A stretch of DNA of 32,000 nt. Source: an uncultured bacterium (GTDB lineage: Bacteria; Margulisbacteria; WOR-1; CAVSGV01). The notes below the pieces were generated by a model that was given only the letters and a program-made list of their open reading frames with translations, was not told the DNA's origin and made no database searches. A program made the translations under genes and the position numbers. Positions within the stretch are counted from its first letter, which is position 1. Every line of letters begins with the position of its first letter. The stretch covers positions 1,050,001-1,082,000 of the forward strand of contig OY969425.1 in NCBI GenBank assembly GCA_963699255.1, given 5' to 3'. This document shows, piece by piece, positions 3,964-23,832 of this stretch.

Positions 3964-4017
3964 AAAAAAATAGCCCTACTCTGTTCGATTCCAGTTAAGA
4001 TATCTCTACCTTAATTT

Positions 4018-4064
4018 GTCATTTGGCATTGGTCATTTGACATTACCCCGACCAAAGGTCGGGG
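4018..4064. repeat. Tandem 13-nt repeat followed by a perfect 8-bp hairpin
   Basis: GTCATTTGGCATT (4018-4030) and GTCATTTGACATT (4032-4044), then CCCCGACC-aaa-GGTCGGGG (4046-4064). No T-run follows on either strand, so it is not a canonical terminator. Confidence 0.6.
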
Positions 4065-4166
4065 TTAATAGCGCAACCTTCTTCAGGTCGAACTGTTAGC
4101 ATTATTCTACCTAATACAATTCACGGGTGCAAGAAGCTGAATTTGCGGCGTTCAGAATGATCTCCC

Positions 4167-4201
4167 GATACTGTGACTTAGCCGGGGAACTTCACAGTAT
4201 C
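4167..4201. repeat. Perfect 10-bp inverted repeat carrying the TCACAGTATC motif
   Basis: GATACTGTGA (4167-4176), a 15-nt spacer, then TCACAGTATC (4192-4201). The same core recurs three times at 5441-5492. Confidence 0.8.
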
Positions 4202-4498
4202 CCTCTATATACGATACGCGTACACAGGCACATACGCACGAGCGCAGGCGCGCGGCCAGACCGGCCAAATTGGGATTTTATTTGTTACTTCGGTACACAA
4301 GGATATTCATTTTAACAGTTGATACATAGATGTTGTTCATTAGCAGTAGAGAAAGACAAAGGATCAATGATGTTAGATATGAATACGAACAAAAGACAGA
4401 AGAACCTGACCCAAAGAGTTTTAGACACGCTGGGAGTTTGAAACTATTGCTGCAAAACCTACTCCTTCAAGACCTCGACTGAGCTTGGTCGGAGTCCT

Positions 4499-4548
4499 CG
4501 GCTTACGGCTTCGCTTTCTCCAGAGGCGAACAGGCGGGACAAGTAAAC
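4499..4548. repeat. Paralogous segment S0 of the non-coding region
   Basis: CGGCTTACGGCTTCG...AGAGGCGAACAGGCGGGACAAGT shares the TTAC-G-TCG, AGAGG-G-ACAGGCG and ACAAGT blocks with S1 and S2. It is the most diverged copy. Confidence 0.5.
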
Positions 4549-4620
4549 TCATCGCCCCGATGCTCCGGTTGATGCAAGCTACCCCCTGTGGTGTGGTAAG
4601 CAAGTTCATTATCCCGATAC

Positions 4621-4695
4621 TTCCGCCAGCCATACAGCTCGTAGAGAGGCGGACAGGCCGATCTCGTCAAAGGTGGGTAGGCAGAACAAGCTACC
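4621..4695. repeat. Paralogous segment S1 of the non-coding region
   Basis: TTCCGCCAGCCATACAGCTCGTAGAGAGGCGGACAGGC... is identical to S2 at 34 of the first 38 positions. It ends ...GGCAGAACAAGCTACC. Confidence 0.75.
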
Positions 4696-4892
4696 GCCTG
4701 CGGCGGGGCAGGCTGGCAGGGAGCTACCGGCTTTGAAAAAGAACAGTGAGCATTTCCCACTACTGAAAACGGGGCAAGGCGATTATCCATGCTATTTCAC
4801 GTTGGCTGAAATGTAACATTTGTTTTGCTTCATTCTCAGACTCAGATTGAGACAGTTACACAATTAACAATGACATCCGCTTTTGCCGAGGC

Positions 4893-4973
4893 TTCCGCCA
4901 GCCTTACAGTTCGTAAAGAGGGGGACAGGCGATGACTCCCGACGTAAAGCCTGCCTGTCGGCAGACAAGTCGG
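4893..4973. repeat. Paralogous segment S2 of the non-coding region
   Basis: TTCCGCCAGCCTTACAGTTCGTAAAGAGGGGGACAGGC... is identical to S1 at 34 of the first 38 positions. It ends ...GGCAGACAAGTCGG. Confidence 0.75.
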
Positions 4974-5430
4974 AATCCCGCACATATTTTACATTTCAAC
5001 AGTAAGGCAGCGGAACAATGAATGGTTATCAGGCCAAAGACAAGCAGGCAAAAAAAGCAGCTTCAGCTGATCGCTTTCTATCAAGACCCGCCTACACCAA
5101 GACTTATACCATCATACCAGCCAGAGGCAATCCCTACAAAGGCAGGCAAGCAGGGAGCAGGTTTCATCGTGTGTTTTCGCTTGGACCATTTGACCTAGTT
5201 TCCCCATGCTTTGCTAAAGATGTCCTTGGTTGTCAGCAATTCATCGCTAACTACAAGAACTGTTGACTTTGTCTTCATTTCAAGCCAGCTGTATCTGCCT
5301 GCGTCGTCTTTTTTGTGTTCGTGCTTGGAGAGGCGCGGAAATGATTTGTTTTGAATGGGATAAGGCTGGGGCCCCACCTGTCCAGACACAAAAAACGAGT
5401 GAAAACTGATGAAATCCCAAGGACAAAAAC

Positions 5431-5494
5431 AAGCGGTTACTTCACAGTATCTAGGGGGGTATTTCACAGTATCAAGCGGTTAGTTCACAGTAAA
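5431..5494 (+). promoter_or_regulatory. Three tandem 21-22-bp operator-like repeats with TTCACAGTA cores
   Basis: AAGCGGTTACTTCACAGTATC (5431-5451), TAGGGGGGTATTTCACAGTATC (5452-5473), AAGCGGTTAGTTCACAGTAAA (5474-5494). Cores lie at 5441, 5463 and 5484, spaced 22 and 21 bp (two helical turns). The array directly abuts the -35 hexamer. Confidence 0.7.
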
Positions 5495-5523
5495 TTGACT
5501 TTTTCACTATTACGGGGCATAAT
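5495..5523 (+). promoter_or_regulatory. Sigma-70-type promoter of the four-gene operon
   Basis: TTGACT (5495-5500), 17-nt spacer, CATAAT (5518-5523). The A of ATG 5530 lies 7 nt after the -10 hexamer, which predicts a leaderless transcript. Confidence 0.6.
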
Positions 5524-5529
5524 TTGATC

Positions 5530-6999
5530 ATGGTACAGGAGCTTGAATATTTAACCTTAAATGAAATAAAAGCTTTTCTTAATGCCATCAACGACACCCG
5601 TGACCGGGCACTAATAATCCTATTCCTTAATACGGGCCTTTTCTTAACCGAGGTAACTTCCCTGAAAGTTGATTCGATCGACTGGAAGAAAAAGATACTT
5701 TCCGTCCCCGGCAACCGGAAAAGGACCATCCCGCTGAACGACCAGGTTTTTGAGGCGTTAGCCAAGTGGTCGAAGGAGCGTCCGGCAGGTAAAATTCCTG
5801 ATCTTTTTGTAACTACAAAAGGCGCGCTGAAAGACCTCACAAGTCGCGGCGTAGATTATCTGATAAGAAAGTACGCAGAACAAGCCGGCATAAAGAAGCG
5901 GGTCAATCCGCAAATACTTCGCAACACATTCGCTGTCCGGCTATTCTCGGAAGAACCCTCCATCGAAAAAGCTTCCGCCATTTTGGGCATATCCGACCCG
6001 GAATCGATAAATCGTTATATACAGGCCTCTAAAAGACCGCCGGCCAAGGTGGAGATAACCGAGAAGCTTGAGCATATCGACACCCGCCACCCCGTCGTTA
6101 AAGCTGTTTCAAAGTTATTCCCTACTAAGCCGAAGATCGTAAAGCCCACGACCGCAATAAAAGGCCCCATAACTCCCAGTCCCGAAGAAGTGATCTTCGG
6201 AAGGGATAATGTGATCGCCGACATAAAAGCTGATATCGCCAAAAGTCAGCCAGTTCTGTTGACTGGCCCGCTTGGAATAGGCAAAACTCATTTATTGATA
6301 CATATGTCAAAGGTCCTCGGTCCCAATACATTATATATATCTGCGCCCAATCCGCTTAAAACCGCTCTGATGCAAATACTCGTAAAACTTGATCCTGAAT
6401 GGCAGAAAAAGCTCAACACCAGAGCTTCAACGAAAGAGATAACCGACTATATTGTGAAAATTAAAGGCGCGAAGCCACCAGTTTTGTTGATCGATAATTT
6501 GAACAATATAAAAATCTCCGATATCGACCCTATTTTGACCTTGCTGAATAACTTTCCCATACTCGCCGCCGCCGATGAAGTAAAACCGAAGCTGAAGCAG
6601 GTCTGGTGGCAGCTTAAACAGGTCCCTCTCCCGCCGTTAAATGAAGATGCCTCGAAAGAACTTATCAAATATCTTACACAGAACCTTACTATTAGCGATT
6701 ATGAAATGCTTGAAACAAGGGTACTGACCCTATCAAACGGCCTTCCTCTTGCCATTGTCGATATGATCCATCAGATAAGCCATATCCCGATGGTTTCAAA
6801 AGATGTTATCCGTGATGTTTATCATGAAGCCGGAATACACTATCGCGACTGGACGACGGTTATAATCTTCATTTACTGGATAGCTGTCATTTTTAGATTT
6901 GTTGCGCTTGGAACAAAAAGCTATGAAGCCTATTTCCTTGCCGGTTTCGGCGTGACGTTATTGATGATTTTAAGAAATGTCATGTCGATGTTGAAGTGA
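5530..6999 (+). CDS. Tyrosine-recombinase-fold domain (degenerate active site) fused to a P-loop NTPase with a C-terminal membrane anchor
   Basis: The N-terminal ~175 aa resembles the XerC/D catalytic domain (RDRALIILFLNTGLFLTEV, ILRNTFAVRLF, LGISDPESINRYI), but with the first Arg as Phe and both His residues replaced. It also has FGRD...LLTGPLGIGKTHLL (Walker A), VLLIDNLN (Walker B-like) and two C-terminal hydrophobic helices. The track start at 5524 is a TTG that directly abuts the -10 hexamer, so ATG 5530 is preferred. Confidence 0.8.
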   Translation: MVQELEYLTLNEIKAFLNAINDTRDRALIILFLNTGLFLTEVTSLKVDSIDWKKKILSVPGNRKRTIPLNDQVFEALAKWSKERPAGKIPDLFVTTKGALKDLTSRGVDYLIRKYAEQAGIKKRVNPQILRNTFAVRLFSEEPSIEKASAILGISDPESINRYIQASKRPPAKVEITEKLEHIDTRHPVVKAVSKLFPTKPKIVKPTTAIKGPITPSPEEVIFGRDNVIADIKADIAKSQPVLLTGPLGIGKTHLLIHMSKVLGPNTLYISAPNPLKTALMQILVKLDPEWQKKLNTRASTKEITDYIVKIKGAKPPVLLIDNLNNIKISDIDPILTLLNNFPILAAADEVKPKLKQVWWQLKQVPLPPLNEDASKELIKYLTQNLTISDYEMLETRVLTLSNGLPLAIVDMIHQISHIPMVSKDVIRDVYHEAGIHYRDWTTVIIFIYWIAVIFRFVALGTKSYEAYFLAGFGVTLLMILRNVMSMLK

Positions 7000-7005
7000 A
7001 TATTT

Positions 7006-8439
7006 ATGTATAGATTTAGAAACATAAAACATTTATTAGATGATGGTGAGCTGGAAAATCAAGAGATATACTTCTCGGATATTTCTGCGCTAAATGATCC
7101 GATTGAAGGCTATAGGGAAATATGCTGGAAAGGAGATAGTATCCTTTGGAAAAACCTTATTAAGCATTATCTTCTATGCCTTGAAAATGTGATAGTGCTT
7201 ACCATGCTTTCAGAAGATCAGGTTAAGTTTAGCCAACAAGACATACCGGTATTTATGAGCACTGAAAAATTGCCAACTGAATTATATAAAAATATGTTCC
7301 AGGAAATATGCAATGAGGTTCTTAATAATGAGGGCATTATAAAGTACACGGAATATCTATCATCTCGCCTAGATGGCGTCAACCATGACGAATTGTTTAT
7401 TCACCTTAAAATGATACATATGATAGCCTGCGAGGCTATTATTAAAATACATGCGGCGCATAGTTTGCAACTTGCCTCAAACAAACCATCCACAAATCAT
7501 TCCGACAGTCTTACTAAATTGTTAACAGCTTTAGAGGAATTACAATCTGGCAAAGAAGAACACATTAATAGCTTGACGCTATTCTCTATGATGAAGCAAT
7601 TCATGAGAGATAATGACATTCTCAGTTCACGCAAATCAATGGGCAAAGGGGATAACAACAAACAATGCTTCATTAAATTTGAATTTCCAGCTGCTTATAT
7701 AGAACAGATTGAATCATTAACTTATCCCAATCTATATGTGGCATGCTTTACGGAGGATTGCACAAATCCTGTTACTTGGAGTCATTATGGGGATAGCCAC
7801 AAGGGCGTTGCCCTTCAATTCAAGCCTCAGCTTATCGAAAATGAACCATGTATTAATCTTTATGGGATCACGGGTGTTTGGGGAAACGGGAAAAATAGCT
7901 ACAGTAAACGTAAATACCCTTTTAAAAAGGTGACATATTCAAATGAATTCCCCAAAATTAATTTTTTTACTTCTCTCGGACAATTAACTGTTCCGCAAGC
8001 CTTGTCTCAATGGTATACAGATGTTGACGGCAAACAGAGCACCTATGCAAGTGACATATTTAATAAGCAAGACGAATGGCGACATGAATATTGGGCGAAA
8101 TTTGAAAAAAGCGTTTTAACTAAACTTAATGACTGGGAGAAAGAAGTGGAGTTTAGATTGATATTGCCCGAAATACTTGGTCTTCATACTGATATAAACG
8201 CTCGGAAATTTAAATACGATTTTAATGACTTAGGTGGCATTGTTTTTGGCATTAAAACACCATTAGAAACTAAATCGAGAATAATAGATATTATCGAGGA
8301 AAAATGCAAAAAAATTGATCGTAAAGACTTTGAATATTATCAAGCTCAGTATGATGAATCAGCTGGTAAAATCAATATTATTAGGATGAGCATAAACCAA
8401 ACGAGGTCGAATAAAGACAATGTTAGCACCAACACATAG
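7006..8439 (+). CDS. DUF2971-family protein
   Basis: The N-terminus MYRFRNIKHLL...EIYFSDISALNDPIEGY matches the DUF2971 signature as I recall it (YkYr...l.fs....fNDPfE). 477 aa, AT-rich, and 6 nt downstream of the preceding stop codon. Confidence 0.7.
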   Translation: MYRFRNIKHLLDDGELENQEIYFSDISALNDPIEGYREICWKGDSILWKNLIKHYLLCLENVIVLTMLSEDQVKFSQQDIPVFMSTEKLPTELYKNMFQEICNEVLNNEGIIKYTEYLSSRLDGVNHDELFIHLKMIHMIACEAIIKIHAAHSLQLASNKPSTNHSDSLTKLLTALEELQSGKEEHINSLTLFSMMKQFMRDNDILSSRKSMGKGDNNKQCFIKFEFPAAYIEQIESLTYPNLYVACFTEDCTNPVTWSHYGDSHKGVALQFKPQLIENEPCINLYGITGVWGNGKNSYSKRKYPFKKVTYSNEFPKINFFTSLGQLTVPQALSQWYTDVDGKQSTYASDIFNKQDEWRHEYWAKFEKSVLTKLNDWEKEVEFRLILPEILGLHTDINARKFKYDFNDLGGIVFGIKTPLETKSRIIDIIEEKCKKIDRKDFEYYQAQYDESAGKINIIRMSINQTRSNKDNVSTNT

Positions 8440-9805
8440 CGTCTTTGGCATCTTTTTAACGCTGATATTCCTGGCAGTGTTCGGGATACAATGGGGTCTT
8501 CATTGGACGATAATTCTGTTCGCGATCATCGGAGCAATAACGCCCGACATCGACCACCCCCGCTCCGTCATAGGCAAGCTTTTTCCGTATATCTCCATTC
8601 CCCTTGAGCGCAAATATGGCCATCGAACGATAACCCATTCATTCATCGGCTGGGCTATCTTCACCGCAATTTTCGCTTTAATTGTCTTGTTTGTAGCTTT
8701 GATCTTTGGATTCATTTTTAAGTTTGACGCTTGGATTTGGGAATTAGCGCCAAGATGGACAGCCGCGTTCTCCATCTCCTACTTTTCCCACCTGGTGCTT
8801 GATATGTTTAACCGCCGCGGCAGCCAGATGTTCTGGCCGGACCCCAGCAGAGATGTTATCCCAAAAAACCCGAAGTTCAGGCCTGAATCGGGATCAAGCG
8901 GGGAGCTTTTGATCTTCTTTATTCTCTTCGTGCTGATGCTCTTTGCTTTTCCGATTTCCAAATACGGGATAGCAAGCTCGCTCCGCTGGCTAATGGCTAC
9001 TCCCGGATCAGCCATCAAGGAGTTTCAGTCCCTCAAGACCCATTCCTATGTTGAATTTAAGGGTTACTTCACGGAAACAAATGAGCCGGTCGAAGGGATA
9101 GGCGAAATTCTCGATGTCCAAAGTTCTCGACTGGTAATATTATATAAACCTGGCCTGAGTGAAGCCGTGATGGTAAAAGGAGTCGAAGGAGGGCTTGCCC
9201 GCCGAAGCCTTAGCGAAGGCGGGAAGATTTACACTTTAAGCGATGAGCTGGCTGCCGATATATCCGCTTCACATGTCCGGCTGAAAAGAACAAATACCCC
9301 TATAAAAGTCACAAAGAAGGAATTCGAAAATGAGAGCCGTGATGCTCTGCTTGCGCAGATACCCGCTGGCGCGCTTGTTTCGGGAACGGTTAAGCTCCCG
9401 GAAGGAATGGGCCTTCAGTTCCCTGCCTACGCCGGCTCTTATAAACCCTTGAGCCAGAAAAGTGGCGATCTTATTCTCTCTTACGCCTCAAAAGACCAGA
9501 TTGCAAAGCTTGCCCTGACAGAAACTTTTAATCTGCAAAAAAGGAAGGACAAGGCCGACCTCGCACAGCTATACGCTCAAGCGGATAAGCTTAAAAGCCA
9601 GATAGCAGAAGCGGAAACCGGCAACGGTCTTACACCTTTAGGCAAAGAGCTTATGATGAACAAAGATGAGATCAAAAAGCAAAAAGCCCAGCTCGCCGAT
9701 TTGAACGGCCAGCTTGAGGAAATAAATGTTAAAATAGAGGAACTTCAGCTGAAGATAAAGGCCAGAAAGTTCGCATTCTCAGGAGAAGTCTATTTAAGAC
9801 AATAA
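8420..9805 (+). CDS. DUF457/YdjM-like membrane-bound metal-dependent hydrolase fold with a C-terminal soluble coiled-coil extension
   Basis: MLAPTHSVFG..., ITPDIDHPRS and HRTITHSF are the YdjM-type His/Asp motifs, set among 5-6 hydrophobic helices. The C-terminal ~260 aa is soluble and ends in a heptad-rich segment (ADLAQLYAQADKLKSQIAEAE...LEEINVKIEELQLKIKARK). It overlaps the upstream gene by 20 nt. Confidence 0.75.
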   Translation: MLAPTHSVFGIFLTLIFLAVFGIQWGLHWTIILFAIIGAITPDIDHPRSVIGKLFPYISIPLERKYGHRTITHSFIGWAIFTAIFALIVLFVALIFGFIFKFDAWIWELAPRWTAAFSISYFSHLVLDMFNRRGSQMFWPDPSRDVIPKNPKFRPESGSSGELLIFFILFVLMLFAFPISKYGIASSLRWLMATPGSAIKEFQSLKTHSYVEFKGYFTETNEPVEGIGEILDVQSSRLVILYKPGLSEAVMVKGVEGGLARRSLSEGGKIYTLSDELAADISASHVRLKRTNTPIKVTKKEFENESRDALLAQIPAGALVSGTVKLPEGMGLQFPAYAGSYKPLSQKSGDLILSYASKDQIAKLALTETFNLQKRKDKADLAQLYAQADKLKSQIAEAETGNGLTPLGKELMMNKDEIKKQKAQLADLNGQLEEINVKIEELQLKIKARKFAFSGEVYLRQ

Positions 9806-9816
9806 GGAGGCTTGAT

Positions 9817-10347
9817 ATGAAGAAATTTGTTGTCTATCTTATTATTGCGAGTTTATTGTCTCCGCTGATTGCTTCTCTTGCTTATGCTTATGAATACACT
9901 CTCGCCACGAATGATCTCCTTGAAGTCAAAATCCTTAATCAGAAGGATATGGACACAAAACAGACTATTACGCCTGATGGCACTATTGCGCTCCCATTCC
10001 TCGGAAGGGTCCAGGCTCAGGGCAAAACGCTCAATGAATTTCAGACCTATTTGACGGCCGAATTCGCCAAGTATGTGGATAAGCCTCAGCTTGTTGTCTA
10101 TCTAACCCCAAGATCGATATATGTAGTTCAGCACGATCTCAAGAAAAATACCTGGGAAGTCAAGGAAGCTAAGTCCATTCCCGAAGCTAAAGCATTCGCT
10201 GGCGAGGATTATACTAAAGAGATCAAATATGGCGATGTTATAACCGTTGATGTCGGACTTCAACCTGACTGGTGGGAAAATAACTGGTATAAAGTGCTCA
10301 CTGGAACAGCTGTTGCAGTTGGAATATACGAAACGCTGAAAAAGTAA
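9817..10347 (+). CDS. Secreted Wza-like protein (Poly_export domain plus possible SLBB)
   Basis: AAGGAGG Shine-Dalgarno 6 nt upstream. Signal peptide MKKFVVYLIIASLLSPLIASLAYA. The Poly_export pattern is YTLATNDLLEVKI...ITPDGTIALPFLGRVQAQGKTLNEFQTYLTAEFAKYVDKPQLVVYL. Confidence 0.8.
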   Translation: MKKFVVYLIIASLLSPLIASLAYAYEYTLATNDLLEVKILNQKDMDTKQTITPDGTIALPFLGRVQAQGKTLNEFQTYLTAEFAKYVDKPQLVVYLTPRSIYVVQHDLKKNTWEVKEAKSIPEAKAFAGEDYTKEIKYGDVITVDVGLQPDWWENNWYKVLTGTAVAVGIYETLKK

Positions 10348-10463
10348 AAGGCGAACTTCTTACCTGACATAAGAAAATCTCTCGGATGATTTCTGGACTA
10401 TCCGGATTGTGGAATAGATGTCTATCTCCAGTAGCTTCGAGTCCAGCACAAAGCCAAATATCC

Positions 10464-10504: not shown

Positions 10505-10837
10505 ATGGACATTAACTTTAAAACATCAAAACTTGAGAAAACCTTTAACTCTTCAAAGAAGCTTAGTATTGAATATGGGCAGAATGCCGAGGTAATTATG
10601 AACAGAATGAAGCTTTTCCAAGAGGTCGTATGCCTGAACGATGTGCCTGTTACAAAGCCACCAAGGAGACATTCTCTCAAAGGAGACAGGGAAAATCAGT
10701 TCGCAGTTGATTTAAGACAAGGCTTTAGGATTACCTTTTGCGCTAACCATGACCCGCTCCCACTTAAAGAGGATGGTGGGATTGATTTAATGAAAGTAAC
10801 GGCAATTACTATTTTAAGTGTGGTGAATTACCATTGA
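10505..10837 (+). CDS. higB: HigB-like toxin (plasmid maintenance system killer, RelE/ParE superfamily)
   Basis: MDINFKTSKLEKTFNS...KLFQEV...LKGDRENQFAVDLRQGFRITF resembles the HigB-like toxin family. It sits immediately upstream of a HigA-type HTH. The track start at 10496 is a TTG; ATG 10505 is preferred. Confidence 0.7.
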   Translation: MDINFKTSKLEKTFNSSKKLSIEYGQNAEVIMNRMKLFQEVVCLNDVPVTKPPRRHSLKGDRENQFAVDLRQGFRITFCANHDPLPLKEDGGIDLMKVTAITILSVVNYH

Positions 10838-10839
10838 AT

Positions 10840-11070
10840 ATGACTAACAATAAAAATACATATAATCCGGACTATGCAGTACATCCTGGAGTAATAATCG
10901 AGGAAACACTCTCTGTATTGGGGATGAAAAAGAGCGATCTAGCTATACGCACTGAGCTTTCATTAAAGACAATAAGCCAAATAATAAATGGTAAAGAGTT
11001 TATTACACCAGAAACAGCAGTAAAGCTTGAAAGAGTATTAGGAATGCAAGCGTATATTTGGAGGAACTAG
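10840..11070 (+). CDS. higA: HigA/VapI-type XRE helix-turn-helix antitoxin-like protein (possibly the N-terminal part of a split HTH-peptidase)
   Basis: HPGVIIEETLSVLGMKKSDLAIRTELSLKTISQIINGKEFITPETAVKLERVLGM is a typical HigA HTH. The ORF stops (TAG 11068-11070) in the middle of the helix that normally continues as FWLNLQxxYDL. Confidence 0.7.
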   Translation: MTNNKNTYNPDYAVHPGVIIEETLSVLGMKKSDLAIRTELSLKTISQIINGKEFITPETAVKLERVLGMQAYIWRN

Positions 11071-11930
11071 ATAGTTCATATCGTATATTTATTGCGAAAC
11101 AAAAAGATCAAGAGAAATATGCCGCGGCACAACGATGGATTAAAAGATTCCCCATAAAAGAACTGATTGAGAGGGGCTATCTAAAGGGTTCAGATAATAT
11201 TAATGAACTTACCGAACAGCTTTTAACTTTCTTTTCGGCTGGATCGTTAAATTCATTTAAAAGTCAAATAACTAATGTTGCTTTCCGCAAATCAGCAGCT
11301 TACCAGAGTAAGCCTGAAAGTGTTATGACTTGGCTTAGAATAGGCCAAGTTGAAGCGCAAAACACTGAAGCGCCATTGTTTAACAGGGACATGTTTACTT
11401 CTAATCTAAAAGAAATTAAGAGATTAACAACATGTAAATCAATTAAAGAAATGCTATTAAGAACGAGGGAATTATGCCTGAAGAGTGGCGTTGTTGTCTT
11501 ATATATTGAAGAAATTGAGCAAACTAGAGCAAGTGGTGCGGCATTTTGGTTAACCAAAGATAAACCGGTCATCATGCTTAGCTCTCGATATAAAACCGAT
11601 GATCATTTCTGGTTTAGTTTTTTCCATGAATGTGGACACCTGCTCAATGATAGCAAGAAAACAACATTTATAGATTATGATGATAATGAAGAAGATGCGA
11701 ACATCTTTGCAGGCAATTTCTTGATTCCACAAAAAGATTATGATGAGTATTTCGGGCAATTTAGAAATGCCGATTTAAACGCAATTATCGTTAATACTTT
11801 TGCTAAGAAAATTGGAATCGCTCCTGGAATTGTTGTCGGTAGGCTTCAAAAAGACAAAAAAATCGATTATGCCAAACAATATTCAAATCTACAAAAGAAA
11901 ATTGACTTTAAAGAAATTAATCGAACATGA
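11058..11930 (+). CDS. ImmA/IrrE-family (COG2856, peptidase M78) zinc metallopeptidase
   Basis: HExxH motif in FFHECGHLLND, and the linker RWIKRFPIKELIERGYL typical of HTH-ImmA fusion proteins. It starts at a TTG overlapping the HTH ORF in another frame. Its stop overlaps the next ATG as ATGA. Confidence 0.8.
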   Translation: MEELDSSYRIFIAKQKDQEKYAAAQRWIKRFPIKELIERGYLKGSDNINELTEQLLTFFSAGSLNSFKSQITNVAFRKSAAYQSKPESVMTWLRIGQVEAQNTEAPLFNRDMFTSNLKEIKRLTTCKSIKEMLLRTRELCLKSGVVVLYIEEIEQTRASGAAFWLTKDKPVIMLSSRYKTDDHFWFSFFHECGHLLNDSKKTTFIDYDDNEEDANIFAGNFLIPQKDYDEYFGQFRNADLNAIIVNTFAKKIGIAPGIVVGRLQKDKKIDYAKQYSNLQKKIDFKEINRT

Positions 11931-13168
11931 ACACTTTTTACGTGCCAATATTAAAAGCAAAAGAGGGAGAATTGTCTGCATTGAATGAGCTCTCCGGGAA
12001 TGTGGCGAAAAAAGTATTTCCTTTATTAGAAATCGTGCCGGATACTCGTTTACTTTCTATTAATGAAAAAATCAAAATAAACGATTCCATAACTAAGCTA
12101 ACCAAGAAAAGTCCTCATAAATTTACATATAAAGACAAAAAAGGAACCCTTCATGTCAAAGGGAGAATGACAGAAAAAGAGTTAGCATATTTGAGAGATA
12201 TTTCAAAGGAATTGAACGATGAGGTATATGCCGCAGCTGTCAACCAACTATACACAAGATCAAACCCAACCATTCAGGATTATCTTAAAGGGGTTTTTAC
12301 TAAGATGGTTGCTTTCAAGCTTACAGGAAGGACTTTATATATTGACTTTCATCATCTCGAAGAAAACAAGCATAGGGTGAATTTATTGGAATTAATATTA
12401 CAAGAGATAAGCATGAATAACATCAAAGCCATTCTTGTCTTTAGCGTTGAGGAGTTAAATAAATATAGTAAAACAATTATTGAGAGCGGAATAAAATCTC
12501 TGGCGATTAGAATTAATGGAAATGAAATCGATTCGCTTAAGGAGATTAAGGCCCAGCTCAAAACAAATCTGGATATTCCAATAAATCAGGTTGACTTAAT
12601 TATTGATCACAAAAGCCTTCAAGGAGGCGACAATCAATTATACGTTAGAGAATATGAAAGAATTACGGAAAAGGATGTATGGGGAAGATTGATATTTGCT
12701 GGGGCATCATTTCCTGTGGATCTGATGGGATATCCCCCCTACAGTGAACATGACATCCCAAGAATTGAATGGCAACAATGGAAATATTTGGCAGAAAAAC
12801 ATGATAATAAAAATATAACTTATTCGGATTACACTATAAGGAGTTCGCAATTACCTCTTGCAAAATTTGGAATTAGTCCAAGTGCAAACATTCGATATAC
12901 TCACGACGATATTTGGTTTTTAGTCCGAGGCAAATCTATAAAACACGACCCAAAGGGGAACAAGCAATATTATGATATATCAAATACAATTTTAGTTGAT
13001 GCTAAATATGCCGGTGAAAATCATTGTGAGGGGGATAAACTTATTAATATGTGCGCAAATAAAAAGTGTGGCCCTGGAAATCAGACTACTTGGATAACCG
13101 CTGGTATAACACATCATATTACGACGGTTGTTGAGCAGCTCTCCAGTTTTCTCGGGACTTTAAAGTAG
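11927..13168 (+). CDS. Beta-protein family protein (T4 beta protein / sce7725-like)
   Basis: The N-terminus MNTFYVPILKAKEGELSALNEL matches the family hallmark as I recall it (YvPiLK.K.GE..AL). C-terminal Cys/His-rich tail ...NHCEGDKLINMCANKKCGPGNQTTWITAGITHHI. ATGA coupling to immA. The family assignment is from memory. Confidence 0.6.
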   Translation: MNTFYVPILKAKEGELSALNELSGNVAKKVFPLLEIVPDTRLLSINEKIKINDSITKLTKKSPHKFTYKDKKGTLHVKGRMTEKELAYLRDISKELNDEVYAAAVNQLYTRSNPTIQDYLKGVFTKMVAFKLTGRTLYIDFHHLEENKHRVNLLELILQEISMNNIKAILVFSVEELNKYSKTIIESGIKSLAIRINGNEIDSLKEIKAQLKTNLDIPINQVDLIIDHKSLQGGDNQLYVREYERITEKDVWGRLIFAGASFPVDLMGYPPYSEHDIPRIEWQQWKYLAEKHDNKNITYSDYTIRSSQLPLAKFGISPSANIRYTHDDIWFLVRGKSIKHDPKGNKQYYDISNTILVDAKYAGENHCEGDKLINMCANKKCGPGNQTTWITAGITHHITTVVEQLSSFLGTLK

Positions 13169-13272
13169 TGCGCACGTAATCTTTCAGTACAACTAATGGG
13201 AAATCATTGGCAAGCATTCCCCATAACAAATATTTTGGCTTACTAATTATCCCCTTTTCTACACCGTGCAAT

Positions 13273-13716
13273 TTAAAGAATTTCAACGATTTCACTTTTC
13301 CATAACAATTGAACAAGCGAAAAAGCATCTACATTATTGTTAAATCTATTTTGCCTAATCATCGTAAATTCTTTATCTTTCTTAAATCTTGGAATCAATT
13401 TAATGCCCCACCATGAGGGGATCATTTTTTTTGCTGACTTTAAATGCGCCTCATTCAATACAAGGGTAACAGTGTCCATAACCTTGTTATACACGACTAT
13501 TTGTGAGGGCAATCTTGCTAGCGTATCAAAGTCACTCTTTATTTCATATCCGTGCATATACCCATTAACTGCAGCTATATCAATCCTTGCCCCACCCTGG
13601 CACAATTCAAATTCCTCAATAATAGTGGTATTTTTCTCGGGTTTTAGCGTTGCCTCATGCTTGTAAAGGAGTTTTCTTATGTCTGCATCATACAAAGGAC
13701 TATACGACCTGGACAT
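13273..13716 (-). CDS. PD-(D/E)xK-fold nuclease-like protein (sce7726/MmcB-like)
   Basis: EFELCQGGARIDIAAVNGYMHGYEIKSDFD provides an E...D...ExK arrangement. 147 aa, convergent with the Beta-protein gene. The sce7725/sce7726 pairing is recalled from NCBI family names and is not verified here. Confidence 0.55.
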   Translation of the reverse strand: MSRSYSPLYDADIRKLLYKHEATLKPEKNTTIIEEFELCQGGARIDIAAVNGYMHGYEIKSDFDTLARLPSQIVVYNKVMDTVTLVLNEAHLKSAKKMIPSWWGIKLIPRFKKDKEFTMIRQNRFNNNVDAFSLVQLLWKSEIVEIL

Positions 13717-13803
13717 ATATAGGCCCCCCCTTTTTTTAACTGTGTGAAATTATACGCTTTTAAATTATTGATGCAAGGTAAGAAGATTGGTAAGCTGTGA
13801 TAA

Positions 13804-13836
13804 GAGGCACTTACGTCTCTTCCCAGTAAGTGCCTC
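13804..13836 (-). terminator. Hairpin downstream of the R-M gene
   Basis: Perfect 11-bp stem GAGGCACTTAC (13804-13814) / GTAAGTGCCTC (13826-13836) with an 11-nt loop, 18 nt past the stop of the minus-strand gene. On the minus strand it is followed by TTAT, a weak U-tract. Confidence 0.5.
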
Positions 13837-13853
13837 AACCTTAACACGACAGT

Positions 13854-16800
13854 TCATTTTCCAAGAAAATCAATCTCATCGATCTCTTTCATAATTTTAT
13901 CCGTTTCTGTCAGAGCAACAACAATCTTCTGATAATGCTCAATGTCTTCATTAGATAGCTTGCGCCCTTTTCGGTCCTTGAGCCATTTTTGCGCAGGCTG
14001 GTAGCCGCCAATATAGAAGTTCCACGCAATTTCCGGTACTTTACCAAAGTATTGTGTCGCATTTATAAATACCTTGCTGTCTTTATAGGTTAGCTTATCA
14101 ACAGTATCCGACCCCTCAACAGGGAAGGTTGTAATATATTTTTCTACTTTAGGTGATTCGAGCAGATGCAATCCACGCAATTCTGCGCCGAGCTTTACCA
14201 GCCCATTGAATGTCTTTGCGTCTTTCGGATAAGGCACTCGTGGAAAATCAATCTTTAAGAATTCCTTATACTTTTCGCGGTAACTTGGTGAATGTAAAAC
14301 CGCGTATATATAATCAAAAATATCTTCGGGGTTACTCTTCTTGACGATCCGTTCTATTGCATCGACAATAACCTTGCTAGTATTTGCTACTCGTCTCGCA
14401 TCATCAGCACAAAGATATAGCGGAAACACTGTATCAATACTTACACTGTCTGAACGTATATATCCATTAACTAAAGGCCCGTTTGCAATAAAATAATATG
14501 AAGAAGGCATATTAGCAGGAGAACGATTTACTGTTACCAAACCGATATTCCTCACAATTAAATGTCGCATAACTTCTTTCCTCATTCGCTCAATAAAATC
14601 TTTATGATAATATACAAAGCGAGTGTCAAATGGTCTATAACATATTGAGACAGTGTTGTTACTATTAAAGTCATGCTTCAGAGCCTCTGCGATCTTCCAT
14701 CCCGCATTCTCCTTTAATGAGTATTTTGACTTTGCCTCTTGTGGCGATTGGCAACAAAGAAAATTCTTAACTCTTTTTTCCAGTGTCTCTCTGTCAAAAT
14801 CAACAATAAAATCATCGCGCGAAGTTACAACCCCAACACTTGACACAGGAAATAATTCGGCAACAGAGAATCCTTTTCCATACTGCTCCCTGATTGCCTC
14901 ATTACGGGCTATCCATTCATAATTCGGCTCAATCGGGCATACAGTTTTCCATCCCACAGAATCAATTGAATGTGAGTCTAAATACTTAAACTTATCTGAA
15001 CGTGAGCCATAACAGTCAGCATGAAATATTTTTGCTTGATTATTCTTGCTATTCTTCTTTTTTAACCCAACAAATATAGAAACTCCAGTTTTAATATCAA
15101 AAACATTCTTATCGTCAGCCCCTTTAGGTGTTTTCTCTTGTTTATTTGCGTTGCCATGAAGATCAAGCACATATATCTCATCAAATGTTTTCATAAGACG
15201 GAATCGCATACCGCGAAAAGTAGGATTGTCAATGTAGCCGTGCGCTGTGATCATTGCCACTATGCCTTCTCCGGTTTTTTCGATCATACTTTCAGCATAC
15301 CTAATAAATTTTACATAATCATCATTCAGCCATTTTGAATTTCGCTCCTGCAATCTTCCACCTGTCGGTTCAACCTTATATACATCATTACCTGTATACG
15401 AAGCGTTACTTGATTCGCCTGAATAAGGTGGATTACCAATTACCACCATTATTGGTGTCTCATTTTTGATTTTGCTTGCTTCTTTTGCTTCTTCAGCAAT
15501 GCTTTCGGCCAAACCAAAAGAAAGCATGTCCTGTTGCACCTCGGTTTGTTCAAGAGAATTTGTCAAATAAATGCCTAATCTATTGTTAAATATCTTAAAC
15601 CCTGTCTTTTTGAATGCCATGCTTAATTTGAGATGCGCGATAGTATATGGCGTCATCATAATTTCGAACCCATGAAGACGCGGTAAAAGGTCATTGTGAA
15701 CATATGTTGTCCATCTTCCCTTTTGCCCCTGTTCGATCAATCTTTTATAGATTGTGTCAATAGTCGCGCTTATAAATGTGCCGGTTCCAACCGCTGGATC
15801 CAGGATTTGAACACGATGTTTTCCATTTGACAGCTTTGAAGAATCAGCAAGACCATTTGGAAGGCCAAACTCTTTTTGCAGAATGTAGTCTACCGAACGT
15901 ACAATAAAGTTTACTACCGGCAGCGGGGTATAATACGCCCCCATTTTCTTGCGAAGCTCTGGGTCATATTCTTTAAGAAAATCTTCATAAAAATGAATAA
16001 CGGGGTCCGGGCTCGCATGTTCTTGGCCGCCAATATCAATTTTGAAGTATTGACTCATCAGCTGTTGAACGTTCGCATGCAGAAAGACGATACAAAGTTC
16101 ATCAACAATATATTTTAAACGATCATCGTAGTCAGCTCCGGCAATATGATCAAAAAAGTGACGAAGGAAAGGGTTGGATGCCGGAACCAGATCCCTGGCT
16201 TCCTGACGGGAGAATGTATCCGGAGTTTCATCGTTATAACGAGCGACAAATAGCCCATAAACAAGTGTTTGCGCGTACATATCCGCAAAAGTATCTACGG
16301 TCAGGTCATGCACAAGTAATTTTTTTATTGTTTCATATACCCGCAATAGTCCCGCATTTTTCTTTGAATCTCTATCCGAAGAGAGATAGTGCCTAATATT
16401 ATCCCTTATTCTTTGCGCCTTTCCCCCCATGATCTTTGCAAGGTGCTCTCCTGATTTGATCGGCTCTTTTTGAGATTGCGTAAAGTCAACAAGGGTTTTC
16501 GCGACTTGTTCATAATTCTCCGGTAAAGGAGAGATAGTGCGGTTCTCTTTGTCAAAGCTTGCTATTTTGATCGGCTCTTCATAAGAAACCCCATTCCTGT
16601 AAAACCTAAATTCCAAATAATCCGTCAGCACCAAATTCGTATAGCCATAATACCTTGCCATTTGTTCGGATTTCTCAACCTTATCAAGCGAGATCCCAAT
16701 ATCTTTTGTTTCAATATAGAGGATAGGAACACTATTATTGATCACGACAAAATCCGGCTTATTCCCTTCTGCAGCCCTTTCATCGTGACCGATGCGTTGA

Positions 16801-16940
16801 ACCTTTATCGACTCGAATATGCCATTTAACAATATTTCAAAGTCGGTACGGTACCCCATCTCGCTTGTTTCTTTGTGGGCAAATTTAGAAGCGACAGACT
16901 TTAGATATTTGGAAACTAAATCATTTTTATTTTCTGCCAT
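13854..16940 (-). CDS. Single-chain type IIG-like restriction-modification enzyme (PD-ExK endonuclease + gamma-class N6-adenine methyltransferase + C-terminal target-recognition region)
   Basis: N-terminal NKPDFVVINNSVPILYIETKD (D...ExK), SAM motif I ILDPAVGTGTF, catalytic motif IV VVIGNPPYSG, and a ~450-aa C-terminal region with FPLY as in type ISP/IIG specificity domains. No helicase domain is present. Confidence 0.8.
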   Translation of the reverse strand: MAENKNDLVSKYLKSVASKFAHKETSEMGYRTDFEILLNGIFESIKVQRIGHDERAAEGNKPDFVVINNSVPILYIETKDIGISLDKVEKSEQMARYYGYTNLVLTDYLEFRFYRNGVSYEEPIKIASFDKENRTISPLPENYEQVAKTLVDFTQSQKEPIKSGEHLAKIMGGKAQRIRDNIRHYLSSDRDSKKNAGLLRVYETIKKLLVHDLTVDTFADMYAQTLVYGLFVARYNDETPDTFSRQEARDLVPASNPFLRHFFDHIAGADYDDRLKYIVDELCIVFLHANVQQLMSQYFKIDIGGQEHASPDPVIHFYEDFLKEYDPELRKKMGAYYTPLPVVNFIVRSVDYILQKEFGLPNGLADSSKLSNGKHRVQILDPAVGTGTFISATIDTIYKRLIEQGQKGRWTTYVHNDLLPRLHGFEIMMTPYTIAHLKLSMAFKKTGFKIFNNRLGIYLTNSLEQTEVQQDMLSFGLAESIAEEAKEASKIKNETPIMVVIGNPPYSGESSNASYTGNDVYKVEPTGGRLQERNSKWLNDDYVKFIRYAESMIEKTGEGIVAMITAHGYIDNPTFRGMRFRLMKTFDEIYVLDLHGNANKQEKTPKGADDKNVFDIKTGVSIFVGLKKKNSKNNQAKIFHADCYGSRSDKFKYLDSHSIDSVGWKTVCPIEPNYEWIARNEAIREQYGKGFSVAELFPVSSVGVVTSRDDFIVDFDRETLEKRVKNFLCCQSPQEAKSKYSLKENAGWKIAEALKHDFNSNNTVSICYRPFDTRFVYYHKDFIERMRKEVMRHLIVRNIGLVTVNRSPANMPSSYYFIANGPLVNGYIRSDSVSIDTVFPLYLCADDARRVANTSKVIVDAIERIVKKSNPEDIFDYIYAVLHSPSYREKYKEFLKIDFPRVPYPKDAKTFNGLVKLGAELRGLHLLESPKVEKYITTFPVEGSDTVDKLTYKDSKVFINATQYFGKVPEIAWNFYIGGYQPAQKWLKDRKGRKLSNEDIEHYQKIVVALTETDKIMKEIDEIDFLGK

Positions 16941-17094
16941 TGATTTGAATTATACGCCCATAAGAAAAGAGAGTAAAGGTTGGGGGATTTTTACTTCCAG
17001 CATGCCAACATATGGAGTGCAACTCCCTTGTCCGTTATGCGCCAAGTGCATATGTGCTTCATTATTTTCTGATTTCACCATGTATTAATAATAA

Positions 17095-18156
17095 TTAATA
17101 GTTAATGGAATAATTGAATAATTGTTTGTTGATTTTAATTGAAGCTTTATATGGTGGGTAGGCATTGGCAGTGGATATATATAAATCTCTTTTTATTCGA
17201 GTATTTGGAGGCAAGATAACAGGTTTATTAAAATAGGATTGAGCTATTGAGGAATTATCCGATTTGGATAAACTCATTATTAATGATTGTTTTTGTCCCT
17301 CTAAATAGGAGATTTTCATGCGCCCCATATTAGCAGCGTTGTGATAGGCACTAATGTTACGTTCTTGGTCTTGTTGCCTTATTCCTTCTAATGCAGCACC
17401 AACAATTCCGCCATAATCTCTCTGCTCCTCCTCCTTAATTGTAACATTGCCATAAATATCTTTACTGGAAACATACTGCTTTTTTGGAATATCATTGGAT
17501 TTATTAGCCACTTCTTGTTGATATCCATATTCATTTTGGTCAACAATAGATTGAAGAGAACGAATTTGAGCATCTATTTCAGCAATTTTAGCTTCATTTT
17601 CTGACCTATTTGCATTATCAAGAGATCTCGCCACTTCATCAGGACTTAAAGTCATCAATAATGTCCTATCAGTATCTTTCATGTAAAAGTTATTTGGGTC
17701 TATTTTGACAGCATATTTATTTTTATTGTAAATGTTTAAGCTTATTTTAATAATATCTTTACCGATAATTGACCCGCTTATTTGAACTTCAACATTTGCC
17801 CTCGTTTTACTTGATGGTTTCTGGGAAAACAAATCTACATCTGTTATCGGAATGGGTTTCGACGCCTCTTGCGAACCTAACTGATTATTAGATGCTTTGG
17901 GGATATTAATTGCTTTATCATCACCATTATTAATAATAAATTCATCTTTATAGATTATATGATCCCCGGGGTATTTTACGATTATAGAATGGTTTCCCGC
18001 TTCAATTGTAGACACTACTATGCCATAGCCAGTAATATTATTATCAATTTCAATTTTATATTCTGCTATCGGTGAATTAACGGTTATGGTCCCATAGGCA
18101 AAGCAACATGAATAGCATAATCCTACTATAAAGGCCGACATGGAAAATACGCGCAT
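17095..18156 (-). CDS. Secreted protein with an N-terminal PEGA-like beta-sandwich and a central coiled coil; function unknown
   Basis: Signal peptide MSAFIVGLCYSCCFAYG. TITVNSPIAEYKIEIDNN...IEAGNHSIIVKYPG resembles a PEGA domain. Coiled-coil stretch ENEAKIAEIDAQIRSLQSIVDQ. Confidence 0.6.
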   Translation of the reverse strand: MRVFSMSAFIVGLCYSCCFAYGTITVNSPIAEYKIEIDNNITGYGIVVSTIEAGNHSIIVKYPGDHIIYKDEFIINNGDDKAINIPKASNNQLGSQEASKPIPITDVDLFSQKPSSKTRANVEVQISGSIIGKDIIKISLNIYNKNKYAVKIDPNNFYMKDTDRTLLMTLSPDEVARSLDNANRSENEAKIAEIDAQIRSLQSIVDQNEYGYQQEVANKSNDIPKKQYVSSKDIYGNVTIKEEEQRDYGGIVGAALEGIRQQDQERNISAYHNAANMGRMKISYLEGQKQSLIMSLSKSDNSSIAQSYFNKPVILPPNTRIKRDLYISTANAYPPYKASIKINKQLFNYSINY

Positions 18157-18406
18157 AAATTTACCTCACAAGTTAAGCATATTCTACTCTTATAAGAAGA
18201 AACAGACAATATTATATTTTGCTCCCCTGCCTTTCCAGTATAGCATTTTACCGCCTTTCCCTGTAAAGCGCGCTCACATTGGGACTTCGTATAAAGCCCC
18301 CTATCCCGAAAAAAGTCCTCATCCTTGCGGATTTTTTCGGGTATTAGTTCTCGCCCTCCTTCTGCCTTCCTACCTCTGCCTTCTTACTTCGTCCTTACCC
18401 CTTCTC

Positions 18407-18471
18407 CGTTGATCCGAGGAATATCCGTTGATAGCTTTATTCGTTGATTCGTTGTCTCATTCGTTGATAGC
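18407..18471 (+). promoter_or_regulatory. CGTTGAT-repeat element, copy 1 (33-bp core at 18439-18471)
   Basis: CGTTGAT at 18407, 18426, 18442 and 18462, plus CGTTGTC at 18450. The core is ATTCGTTGATTCGTTGTCTCATTCGTTGATAGC. TATAAT follows at 18477-18482 and ATG at 18494. Confidence 0.75.
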
Positions 18472-18493
18472 CTTTGCTATAATCAACAGTCAA

Positions 18494-23352: not shown

Positions 23353-23832
23353 TCATTGGTGTTTTTCTTTATAAGCCTTTCTCTTTTCTTCGCCGGCCAG
23401 ATAATCTTCCATCGTTTCCTGTGCCATTTCCTCACCTTTTCCCTCAAAGAATCGCTTTAATGTGTTTATGACTTCATCTTCCTTGAACGGCTTTTTAATG
23501 TATCCCGCCACGTAAGCCGACGCAACTTCAAGCCATTTATCCTCATCTTCATATGCGGTAAGCATAATAACGCCTATCTTGTCTTCATATTTCTCCCTCA
23601 GCTTGTCCAAAAATTGCAGTCCATCCATCTCGGGCATTTTTATGTCGAGAAGAATACACTTGATACGGTTGTGGCCAAGTCCCAATAATGGCATATTTTT
23701 ATCTATGGTTTCAAATGCTTCTTTGGCGGAATTTGCCGTGATAGCTTCGTAACCGATCTTTCGAAGAAAGGCCGCAGCCGCATCCGCGAATTCTTTTTCA
23801 TCATCCACAACCAGAATAAGAGGCTTTTTCAT
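23353..23832 (-). CDS. Stand-alone CheY-like response-regulator receiver
   Basis: LILVVDDEKEF, phospho-acceptor ILLDIKMPEMDG, MLTAY, GYIKKPF. No output domain. Its stop codon directly abuts the kinase stop codon. Confidence 0.9.
   Translation of the reverse strand: MKKPLILVVDDEKEFADAAAAFLRKIGYEAITANSAKEAFETIDKNMPLLGLGHNRIKCILLDIKMPEMDGLQFLDKLREKYEDKIGVIMLTAYEDEDKWLEVASAYVAGYIKKPFKEDEVINTLKRFFEGKGEEMAQETMEDYLAGEEKRKAYKEKHQ

Follow-up and report, generated by a model that had tools for sequence, protein, structure and literature searches.

Two kinds of genomic arrangement come closest to the locus described here. In the P2/P4 hotspots (PMC9122126) and in the core defence hotspots of Pseudomonas (PMC10250203), conserved flanks in a conserved order enclose a hypervariable content that includes anti-phage systems, and this content is probably turned over by recombination in the flanks. 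In integrons, a gene of the tyrosine-recombinase family stands beside co-oriented promoterless cassettes under one upstream promoter, and some of these cassettes encode phage defence. We analyzed a stretch of 32,000 nucleotides (nt), referred to below as the window, of contig OY969425.1 (assembly GCA_963699255.1, forward-strand positions 1,050,001 to 1,082,000), from an uncultured bacterium of the WOR-1 lineage of Margulisbacteria. The window holds a run of four open reading frames (ORFs), three of which, ORF1, ORF3 and ORF4 (collectively, the trio), constitute a conserved core. Seen across related loci, this operon is a defence hotspot flanked by core genes: its flanks are conserved, its content is hypervariable, and known defence families are part of that content. 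The P2/P4 and Pseudomonas hotspots are bordered by genes of phages or satellites or by core genes that have nothing to do with each other, whereas the flanks here are the genes of a single chromosomal operon, in which the insertions are ORF-precise (0–15 nt), co-oriented and apparently promoterless, and occupy two slots, possibly a third, and a downstream island. The trio departs from integrons in that its recombinase domain is dead and forms one protein with an ATPase and a membrane anchor, in that attC-type sites are absent, and in that each slot receives one to a few genes between conserved genes. The hotspot principle is known, but ORF-precise, promoterless slots within one conserved chromosomal operon are new, and there is a substantial chance that the trio represents a new type of system. 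As to its role, we give about even odds to an inner-membrane/periplasmic module that regulates itself and whose operon, together with the region just downstream, single-gene defences use both as a hotspot and as an expression platform.

The conserved trio and its cargo slots

The four ORFs lie on the + strand at 5530 (or, from a TTG, 5524)–6999, 7006–8439, 8420–9805 and 9817–10347. Between ORF1 and ORF2 there are 6 nt, ORF2 and ORF3 overlap by 20 nt, and ORF4 begins after a gap of 11 nt. A preliminary description of this DNA, made from the letters alone, had given the same coordinates and spacing and had taken the four genes for one candidate system. The domains that it assigned to ORF1 (recombinase fold and NTPase), ORF3 (DUF457/YdjM) and ORF4 (Poly_export) agree with our profile matches, but the unit itself has to be redrawn. 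Relatives were collected by scanning one genome per species, which gave 31 loci, and by scanning metagenomes with an ORF3 profile, which gave 80 more. By tblastn, ORF1, ORF3 and ORF4 recur in constant order and orientation, at 35–91% identity, in loci numbered L001 to L116. Three of the four genes are thus tightly linked in more than 100 loci, whereas a homologue of ORF2 is present in none of the 116 related trio loci. The novel object is a three-gene core with cargo slots and not a four-gene system. Core gene 1 (ORF1) encodes a dead tyrosine-recombinase domain, an AAA+/STAND-like P-loop domain and a transmembrane (TM) hairpin; core gene 2 (ORF3) encodes a five-TM YdjM/DUF457 domain, after which come a predicted beta domain, a long alpha-hairpin and one closing strand; and core gene 3 (ORF4) encodes a signal peptide, a Poly_export domain and a C-terminal hydrophobic helix. 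ORF2, of the DUF2971/PDC-S31 type, is the cargo of slot 1 and lies outside this core.

Nearly all trio loci are assigned to Margulisbacteria, and the closest relatives of ORF1 and ORF3 are annotated as WOR-1, Saganbacteria or Margulisiibacteriota. Several genomes carry two to four trio loci, some of them partial. No further gene family is conserved in the flanks, the commonest being found in 7 of ~55 loci. Since ORF1, ORF3 and ORF4 recur alone and share no flanking family, the conserved unit is a self-contained trio placed in varying settings. Neither of the two profiles found a relative of the trio in 2.9 million viral contigs; on this result, and with phage genes not recurrent in the flanks, an origin as a prophage or satellite was rejected. 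A literature search returned no paper on this trio or on its combination of proteins: these domains go unmentioned in Kaur et al. 2020, and the top match for "DUF457" was a false prefix match to DUF4579 and was discarded.

With a distance of more than 200 nt taken as occupancy, slot 1, between ORF1 and ORF3, is filled in 35 of 74 loci, and slot 2, between ORF3 and ORF4, in 29 of 57. The spacing is two-state in both. In slot 1 the distance is either ~0–140 nt or 0.27–6.5 kb, and the gaps of empty slots (~0–140 nt) are mostly shorter than 50 nt. In the window, ORF2 occupies slot 1 and slot 2 is empty (11 nt). Cargo ORFs are almost always co-oriented with the trio and have a guanine-cytosine (GC) content below that of their own locus. 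Each starts 3–15 nt past the stop codon of the gene before it and reaches to the start codon of the gene after it, give or take a few nt; most have a spacer of 0–15 nt to their neighbours and no evident promoter of their own. The cargo proteins of at least 100 amino acids (aa), 76 in number, fall into 62 clusters, and some families are found in either slot. They include Shedu SduA (1e-144) and SoFic (7e-114), the PADLOC candidates PDC-S02, PDC-S04, PDC-S11, PDC-S13 and PDC-S19, AbiEi/AbiEii, HNH, DUF559 and YhcG nuclease, TOTE primase, SEC-C, Bro-N and HD proteins, and AlbA_2 or DUF4062 fused to HATPase_c_4. Many of the cargo genes are thus known or candidate anti-phage systems of the single-gene kind, and many cargo families have no match in Pfam or PADLOC.

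The guest in the window, ORF2 (477 aa), had been called a DUF2971 protein, an assignment that holds in part. Its score against the Pfam DUF2971 model (PF11185), 19.2 bits, falls under the gathering threshold of 22; its family placement comes from the PADLOC candidate single-gene system PDC-S31 (1.3e-21) and from full-length homologues, many of which carry PF11185. No domain is assigned to its N-terminal 225 residues. DUF2971 has an ADP-ribosyltransferase fold and is a relative of DarT and AbiGi (PMC12522546), and both Aristaios (DUF2971) and Rugutis (SEC-C) are single-gene anti-phage systems on lactococcal plasmids (PMC11381338). With Aristaios/PDC-S31, ORF2 shares the DUF2971 family, the PDC-S31 profile and the motifs WSHYGD...HKG and E-x-E-type; it differs in length (Aristaios has 316 aa), and its own anti-phage role is a prediction. 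The local GC content of ORF2 is ~36%, compared to 43–49% over the core genes, and its ~470-aa family is patchy across phyla (spirochaetes, Bacillus, Clostridium, Plesiomonas, Paraburkholderia and others). Because of the missing trio-locus homologue, the low GC content and this scattered distribution, we read ORF2 as the current occupant of slot 1 and a swappable guest, probably a stand-alone defence gene of the Aristaios/PDC-S31 type, and not as a subunit. That the four genes each encode a subunit of a single dedicated system, as their tight packing and shared promoter in the window could imply, is contradicted by comparative genomics and hardly credible to us: besides the absence and the GC difference just given, 62 other families sit in the two slots, the ORF2 family stands alone in unrelated phyla, and the DUF2971 protein Aristaios works as a single gene.

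Remnants of the 3′ end of ORF1 or ORF3 lie beside the cargo in slot 1 of L010, L040, L052 and L061, and in slot 2 of L037, L076 and L094. Together with the remnant of a papain-like gene downstream of the trio (below), they point to turnover of cargo by recombination between trio loci and not by a cassette-specific recombinase; the exchange would take place through the conserved genes that flank each slot. Slot 1 of L009 (2148–6693) contains a 75-aa duplicate of the ORF1 C-terminus and an FHIPEP fragment fused to a zinc ribbon, which suggests repeated, messy recombination at the slot. The intergenic spaces of trio loci also contain heptamer repeats (ATTTGTC / ATTGGTCATTTGAC) and long imperfect palindromes, in empty and occupied slots alike; they are seen at 4014–4044 of the window and in the slots of L010, L016, L058, L062, L064, L067, L088 and L106. 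In L016, L067 and L106 the cargo is bracketed by inverted repeats of ~35–45 nt, which resemble miniature inverted-repeat transposable elements.

The core proteins and their predicted arrangement

In a Pfam profile search ORF1 matched Phage_integrase over residues 7–168 (5.5e-23) and also AAA_22/AAA_16. The best model for its N-terminal domain is XerA/integron-integrase (7e-31). The active site of this domain is degraded, as the preliminary description had proposed: R-I is replaced by F38, H-II by Q128 and H/W-III by I154, while R131, Y163 (invariant) and one basic beta-hairpin residue are kept, a pattern that is the same in all 22 of the 22 aligned homologues. The N-terminal core-binding domain is missing; the Pfam catalytic domain begins at residue 7, and the NCBIfam XerA match begins at model position 92. 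The P-loop domain (residues ~225–420) bears the predicted Walker motifs. Walker A (GPLGIGKT) is invariant, and Walker B has the form hhhhD322-N323, in which the aspartate is retained and asparagine stands in place of the usual catalytic glutamate. This D-N pair suggests that ORF1 may be a nucleotide-binding switch rather than a fast hydrolase. The AlphaFold2 (AF2) model (predicted local distance difference test, pLDDT, 79.5) comprises a XerA-like fold, an AAA+ fold and a TM hairpin at 442–488, made up of the two C-terminal helices that had been expected (442–462 and 465–488). Foldseek matched it to XerA (4e-9) and to RFC, RuvB(L) and the NB-ARC domain of NLR proteins (1e-7 to 1e-6). PADLOC models gave nothing above P-loop-level similarity against ORF1, ORF3 or ORF4.

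The kinship of ORF1 with integron integrases raises the question of an integron-like platform, in which the ORF1 recombinase would capture cassettes. The co-orientation of the cassettes, their lack of evident promoters and the palindromic elements in some slots all recall integrons. Yet R-I, H-II and H/W-III are lost in every member, the 0–15-nt spacers of most cargo leave no space for attC-like sites, ORF1 is co-oriented with the cassettes and not divergent like intI, and the palindromic elements are found outside the slots too. With a dead active site and no space for attC sites, cassette capture of this kind was rejected as very improbable.

ORF3 matched YdjM (PF04307) at 3.9e-28, with 98.6 bits against a cut-off of 29. 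Residues H6, D43, D45, H68, H73, H124 and D128 are invariant in 25 sequences, H46 is nearly so, and 19 of 25 family members show weak matches to Zn_dep_PLPC (Zn-dependent phospholipase C). The structural model (pLDDT 71) has five TM helices, a beta domain (209–357), an alpha-hairpin (368–448) with helices of ~35 residues each, and a closing strand (453–460). When the C-terminal region was compared with PDB folds, AcrA and MacA (E 0.04–0.2) accounted for most of the best matches and Wzc ranked lower; all are weak (E 0.04–0.4). The metal-ligand loops are rich in lysine and arginine and are for this reason placed in the cytoplasm, from which it follows, by the positive-inside rule, that the region after TM5 would be periplasmic.

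Distant versions of the ORF1–YdjM pair without ORF4 are found in L035 and on a contig of ~15 kb that bears Rep_1 and ERF genes (L117/L118) and is plasmid- or phage-like in look. In L119, a 597-aa YdjM protein with an adaptor-like C-terminus precedes a 296-aa AAA+-hairpin protein that has no recombinase domain, and DUF87 and RusA genes adjoin; this ORF3 relative has a weak BSH_YknX match and a lipoyl-like motif pair (V.EGD..RKGQV.A.L / DGKVV) that flanks the hairpin. From the pairs without ORF4, and from the L119 version without the recombinase domain, we conclude that the ATPase–YdjM pair is the older core. In L032–L034 (WOR-1 genomes; 11462–19114) the trio has decayed: ORF1 is followed by SEC-C, small sigma-70 region-4 and AlbA_2–HATPase_c_4 proteins, an IS3-type transposase and a serine recombinase come after this cargo, ORF3 is present only as a fragment of ~23 aa (in L003), and ORF4 is absent.

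ORF4 matched Poly_export over residues 24–96 at 5.8e-20 (71.7 bits, cut-off 28), and all NCBIfam models of OPX (outer-membrane polysaccharide export) proteins scored far under their cut-offs against it. It is a protein of 176 aa with an AYA-type signal peptide and no Cys lipobox, whereas known OPX/Wza proteins have ~350–400 aa and a lipoprotein signal. The signal peptide and the C-terminal helix are conserved over 52 homologues. This hydrophobic helix (PD.WedNWYKv.T..Av.vGiy.tl) is followed by one or two basic residues (K/R) in most homologues, and it looks, by its sequence, like an inner-membrane stop-transfer anchor.

Taken together, these features are consistent with an inner-membrane complex of ORF1, ORF3 and ORF4 with a periplasmic arm. 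ORF1 would be cytoplasmic and anchored through its two-helix hairpin. The metal site of ORF3 would face the cytoplasm, and its beta domain and coiled-coil hairpin would reach into the periplasm as those of membrane-fusion (adaptor) proteins do. ORF4 would be a periplasmic Poly_export-domain protein, held at the inner membrane by its C-terminal anchor. Tripartite efflux pumps and Wza–Wzc combine the kinds of part that are predicted here: a cytoplasmic nucleotide-binding protein, a membrane protein with a beta domain and alpha-hairpin, and a Poly_export (OPX) protein. In the trio, however, the ATPase is AAA+/STAND-like and not an ABC protein or BY-kinase, the membrane part is a YdjM hydrolase, and the OPX-like protein is small, lacks a lipobox, has an anchor of the inner-membrane type and has no polysaccharide genes nearby.

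This resemblance is the starting point for a different account, according to which the trio is a lineage-specific housekeeping device of the envelope, for export or tethering of a polymer or lipid, and defence genes simply gather in a permissive, well-expressed operon. High conservation across the phylum and the empty slots of half of the loci fit such a device, as do the Poly_export domain and the adaptor-like ORF3. We nevertheless consider it rather unlikely, if still a serious rival. Embedding in capsule or exopolysaccharide loci, which the preliminary description had named as a sign of a housekeeping export role, was looked for and never found: the trio does not occur in loci for glycosyltransferases, flippases or polymerases, and no polysaccharide gene family, or any other, recurs in its flanks, so that a capsule or exopolysaccharide locus was rejected. 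The two to four diverged loci, some partial, in several small genomes, and the short ORF4 without a lipobox, do not suit an export machine either. About half of the loci have foreign ORFs between the subunits, insertions that one would expect an essential machine to tolerate only at a cost, and neither recombinase-derived domains nor operator arrays belong to export machines.

Repeats and promoter upstream of ORF1

Three direct repeats of TTCACAGTA (TTCACAGTATC repeats), with a period of 21–22, lie at 5430–5492 (+) directly upstream of the −35 hexamer of a sigma-70-like promoter, TTGACT-17-CATAAT (5495–5523, +), which matches at 10 of 12 positions and is conserved in L001 and L022. The operator array and the single promoter had been recognized in the preliminary description; an inverted repeat at 4167–4201 and the 1.2-kb leader that extends from it to the array had been overlooked. 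The inverted-repeat operator, GATACTGTGA-N13-(T)TCACAGTATC, shares its motif with the direct repeats, and its arms co-vary between lineages (e.g., ATGTTGCGG/CCGCAACAT in L032). There are four copies of TTCACAGTA in the window compared to 0.12 expected, three in the array and the fourth as an arm of the inverted repeat. The array is conserved in L001, L022 and L037. By a strict criterion (three in-register 8-mers with 20–23-bp spacing, just upstream of ORF1), arrays are present in 15 of 61 loci, a count that 0–1 of 50 shuffles reach, and many more loci have two copies. The lineage-specific motifs form a related family (CGCAAT / CACAGT / CGCACT / CACACC).

Upstream of the inverted repeat, a conserved block of ~90 nt (4066–4160) with an invariant TACC.AATAC...TGCAAGA forms the left boundary of the stretch that is homologous to related loci. 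Upstream of ORF1 it is also present, by blastn and alignment, in L022, L026, L029, L032/L003, L085 and L087, some of them distantly related. RNAalifold found no RNA structure in the block (−0.43 kcal/mol). A sigma-54 promoter was rejected for its unfit spacing, as was a strong sigma-70 promoter, since the minus-strand TTGCAC-17-TAGAAT is a weak match, with agreement at 8 of 12 positions, and the promoter scan did not call it. The distance from the block to the array varies: it is ~60 nt in L029, 1.2 kb in the window and 3.3 kb in L032, where two unknown ORFs lie in between. The leader in the window (4202–5429, +; "slot 0") has no convincing ORF or RNA, is not conserved even with respect to the ~90%-related L001 and L022, and gave no blastx match and no excess folding. 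In the 1.5-kb upstream region, no Rfam match at the gathering threshold or at E ≤ 1 was found except a chance PsrR1 (20 of 42 bits), and no tRNA; with the Rfam, RNAalifold, folding, blastx and tRNA searches all empty, an RNA gene or riboswitch was rejected. The leader interval is possibly one more variable slot, the third, or what is left of decayed cargo.

The dead recombinase domain of ORF1 is most likely what binds these operators, and it is the leading candidate because it is the sole domain of a DNA-binding type in the conserved unit. The domain would bind the direct and the inverted repeats, and the ATP-binding switch predicted from the D-N Walker B would gate autoregulation of the operon. 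Cargo genes would be expressed under this same control, since they have no evident promoter of their own and are spaced at 0–15 nt.

Yeast Ndc10 is a centromere binder with a recombinase fold. It resembles ORF1 in having the catalytic fold of a recombinase with an incomplete catalytic set in a setting that points to site-specific DNA binding; in ORF1 the domain belongs to a fusion protein with an AAA+ ATPase and a membrane hairpin, and it has kept R-II and the tyrosine. This precedent invites the notion of a partition-like module, in which the dead recombinase sits on centromere-like repeats and the ATPase and anchor fix the DNA to the envelope. Iteron-like 21–22-bp arrays and an inverted repeat next to the gene, and the distant pairs on a plasmid-like contig with Rep_1, speak for it. 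We judge it improbable, given that the trio is chromosomal in Margulisbacteria and stands beside housekeeping genes, that tethering leaves ORF3, ORF4 and the cargo slots unexplained, and that the repeats directly adjoin the −35 hexamer, where a transcriptional operator would be expected.

The platform reading and the defence neighbourhood

We return to the reading of the operon as a hotspot and expression platform. Its structural part is well supported, whereas the ORF1 switch, the ORF1–ORF3–ORF4 complex and the coupling to the envelope are what we infer. The module would be a regulated platform for swappable defences, possibly responsive to envelope events. Several observations weigh against this reading. 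ORF1 is without the N-terminal core-binding half that normally helps recombinases clamp DNA, and its binding to the repeats is deduced. Strict repeat arrays are present in only about a quarter of the loci. The operator classes track the phylogeny of ORF1, its recombinase and ATPase domains equally; this is ordinary relatedness and no proof that the operators co-evolved with the DNA-binding domain, since the comparison does not discriminate between the two domains. The adaptor view of ORF3 draws on weak fold matches and topology, with no PDB match at E ≤ 0.001; Pfam adaptor models did not match the protein, a search of PDB sequences with the ORF3 profile gave coiled-coil noise and no solved homologue, and the periplasmic position of its C-terminal part is a reading by the positive-inside rule and not the output of a predictor. 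The mean column identity of ORF3, 66%, is unusually high and suits a housekeeping as well as a platform role. An outer-membrane component for the trio was not found. Cargo is absent from half of the loci, and the trio must therefore have a function of its own.

A bolder version makes the trio a new kind of envelope-coupled immune hub, in which a membrane-tethered ATP switch with a domesticated, dead recombinase domain would perceive phage attack via its periplasm-spanning partners, ORF3 and ORF4, and turn on the swappable single-gene defences in the slots of its polycistronic operon. Zorya, a membrane-associated defence complex, follows the same proposed logic of envelope sensing and DNA binding. 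Kiwa (PMC11785009) is alike in this proposed logic, with an envelope-sensing inner-membrane complex linked to a DNA-binding component. The trio is unlike both, in that its homology to PADLOC models is at the P-loop only and its predicted DNA-binding part is aimed at its own operator. We hold the hub to be doubtful.

A function of its own could also mean that the trio protects against phages or plasmids in its own right, with the cargo merely nested within it; nesting of one defence system in another is common. In one version of this proposal, membrane-anchored ORF1 meets incoming DNA at the inner membrane and activates ORF3, a metallohydrolase of the phospholipase-C/P1-nuclease type that would degrade lipid (abortive infection) or nucleic acid. 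The weak Zn_dep_PLPC matches and the invariant His/Asp set of ORF3 are in keeping with such an effector, and so is the STAND/NLR-like fold of the ORF1 ATPase. The distribution of the trio adds to the case: multiple diverged loci in several genomes and in variable contexts, one locus decayed through insertion of an insertion sequence (IS) element and a serine recombinase, borders with defence islands, and distant ORF1–YdjM pairs on the 15-kb Rep_1/ERF contig and beside RusA and DUF87. Set against this, the core proteins match PADLOC at the P-loop level only, the conservation of ORF3 and ORF4 is housekeeping-like and unlike that of fast-evolving immune genes, and the trio is confined nearly to one phylum, whereas ORF2 is patchy. 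We regard a defence role of the trio as a credible minority view; the platform remains our preferred reading.

The association with defence that the preliminary description had drawn from the neighbourhood proved stronger than the sequence alone could show, with known defence genes both beside and inside the cluster. Upstream, the window has dnaG, rpoD and a methyltransferase gene, on a chromosome of the Margulisbacteria type. Downstream of ORF4, at 10361–10418 (+), 58 nt are left of the 3′ end of a papain-like (Peptidase_C1) gene, with a stop codon in them. L022 (14466–15233) and L001 have the whole gene immediately behind ORF4, and it must therefore have been deleted in the lineage of the window. 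Next comes a PD-Lambda-2-like system of three genes (10834–13168, +). Its ImmA/IrrE-like protein matched PD-Lambda-2_B (3.2e-33) and its Beta protein matched PD-Lambda-2_C (2.1e-44); the gene for its helix-turn-helix (HTH) protein had no PD-Lambda-2 match, its sole match being a marginal one to PDC-M64C. A toxin-antitoxin/ImmA module and a Beta-protein/nuclease pair described earlier are rather this one system, while the accompanying type IIG restriction–modification (R-M) enzyme is as described, at 13854–16940 (−; 1.5e-291). The R-M gene is adjoined by a 147-aa ORF (13273–13716, −) that matches the PADLOC "cll" model (2e-24). An enzyme of type IIG with 52% identity is encoded downstream of the trio in L022. 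Two loci in which both slots are empty have defence genes downstream on the same strand and housekeeping genes upstream: the downstream genes encode a methyltransferase and a ResIII enzyme in one, and an EcoRI-type methylase, GmrSD, a Ymh protein and an OLD-family nuclease in the other.

Histidine kinases of the HisKA_7TM type occur within ~10 kb of trio loci, at 21220–23832 in the window, at ~20000 in L001, and in L010, L019 and L027. They are paired with a response regulator in several loci, and the L010 pair (5779–6898) lies directly upstream of ORF1. Toward the end of the window, at ~25550–32000 (+), an ORF that opens with a signal-like segment is still unterminated at the window end, after more than 2150 codons, and appears to encode a giant secreted or surface protein; being truncated, it is missing from ORF lists.

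For the biology of these bacteria, the trio offers a search handle: reading the genes between and after ORF1, ORF3 and ORF4 gives access to anti-phage genes of an uncultivated phylum. About 110 loci already yield the 62 cargo families, and those without a Pfam or PADLOC match are candidate new defence genes; comparable resources, the P2/P4 hotspots and integron cassettes, proved useful. The ORF-precise splicing of cargo between conserved subunits raises the questions of how defences are jointly regulated and how cassettes move without a dedicated recombinase. The combination of proteins, a dead recombinase–AAA+–anchor fusion, a YdjM hydrolase whose predicted periplasmic arm is adaptor-like, and a Poly_export protein of very small size, is unprecedented, and the trio may supply the first functional context for the widespread, uncharacterised YdjM/DUF457 family.

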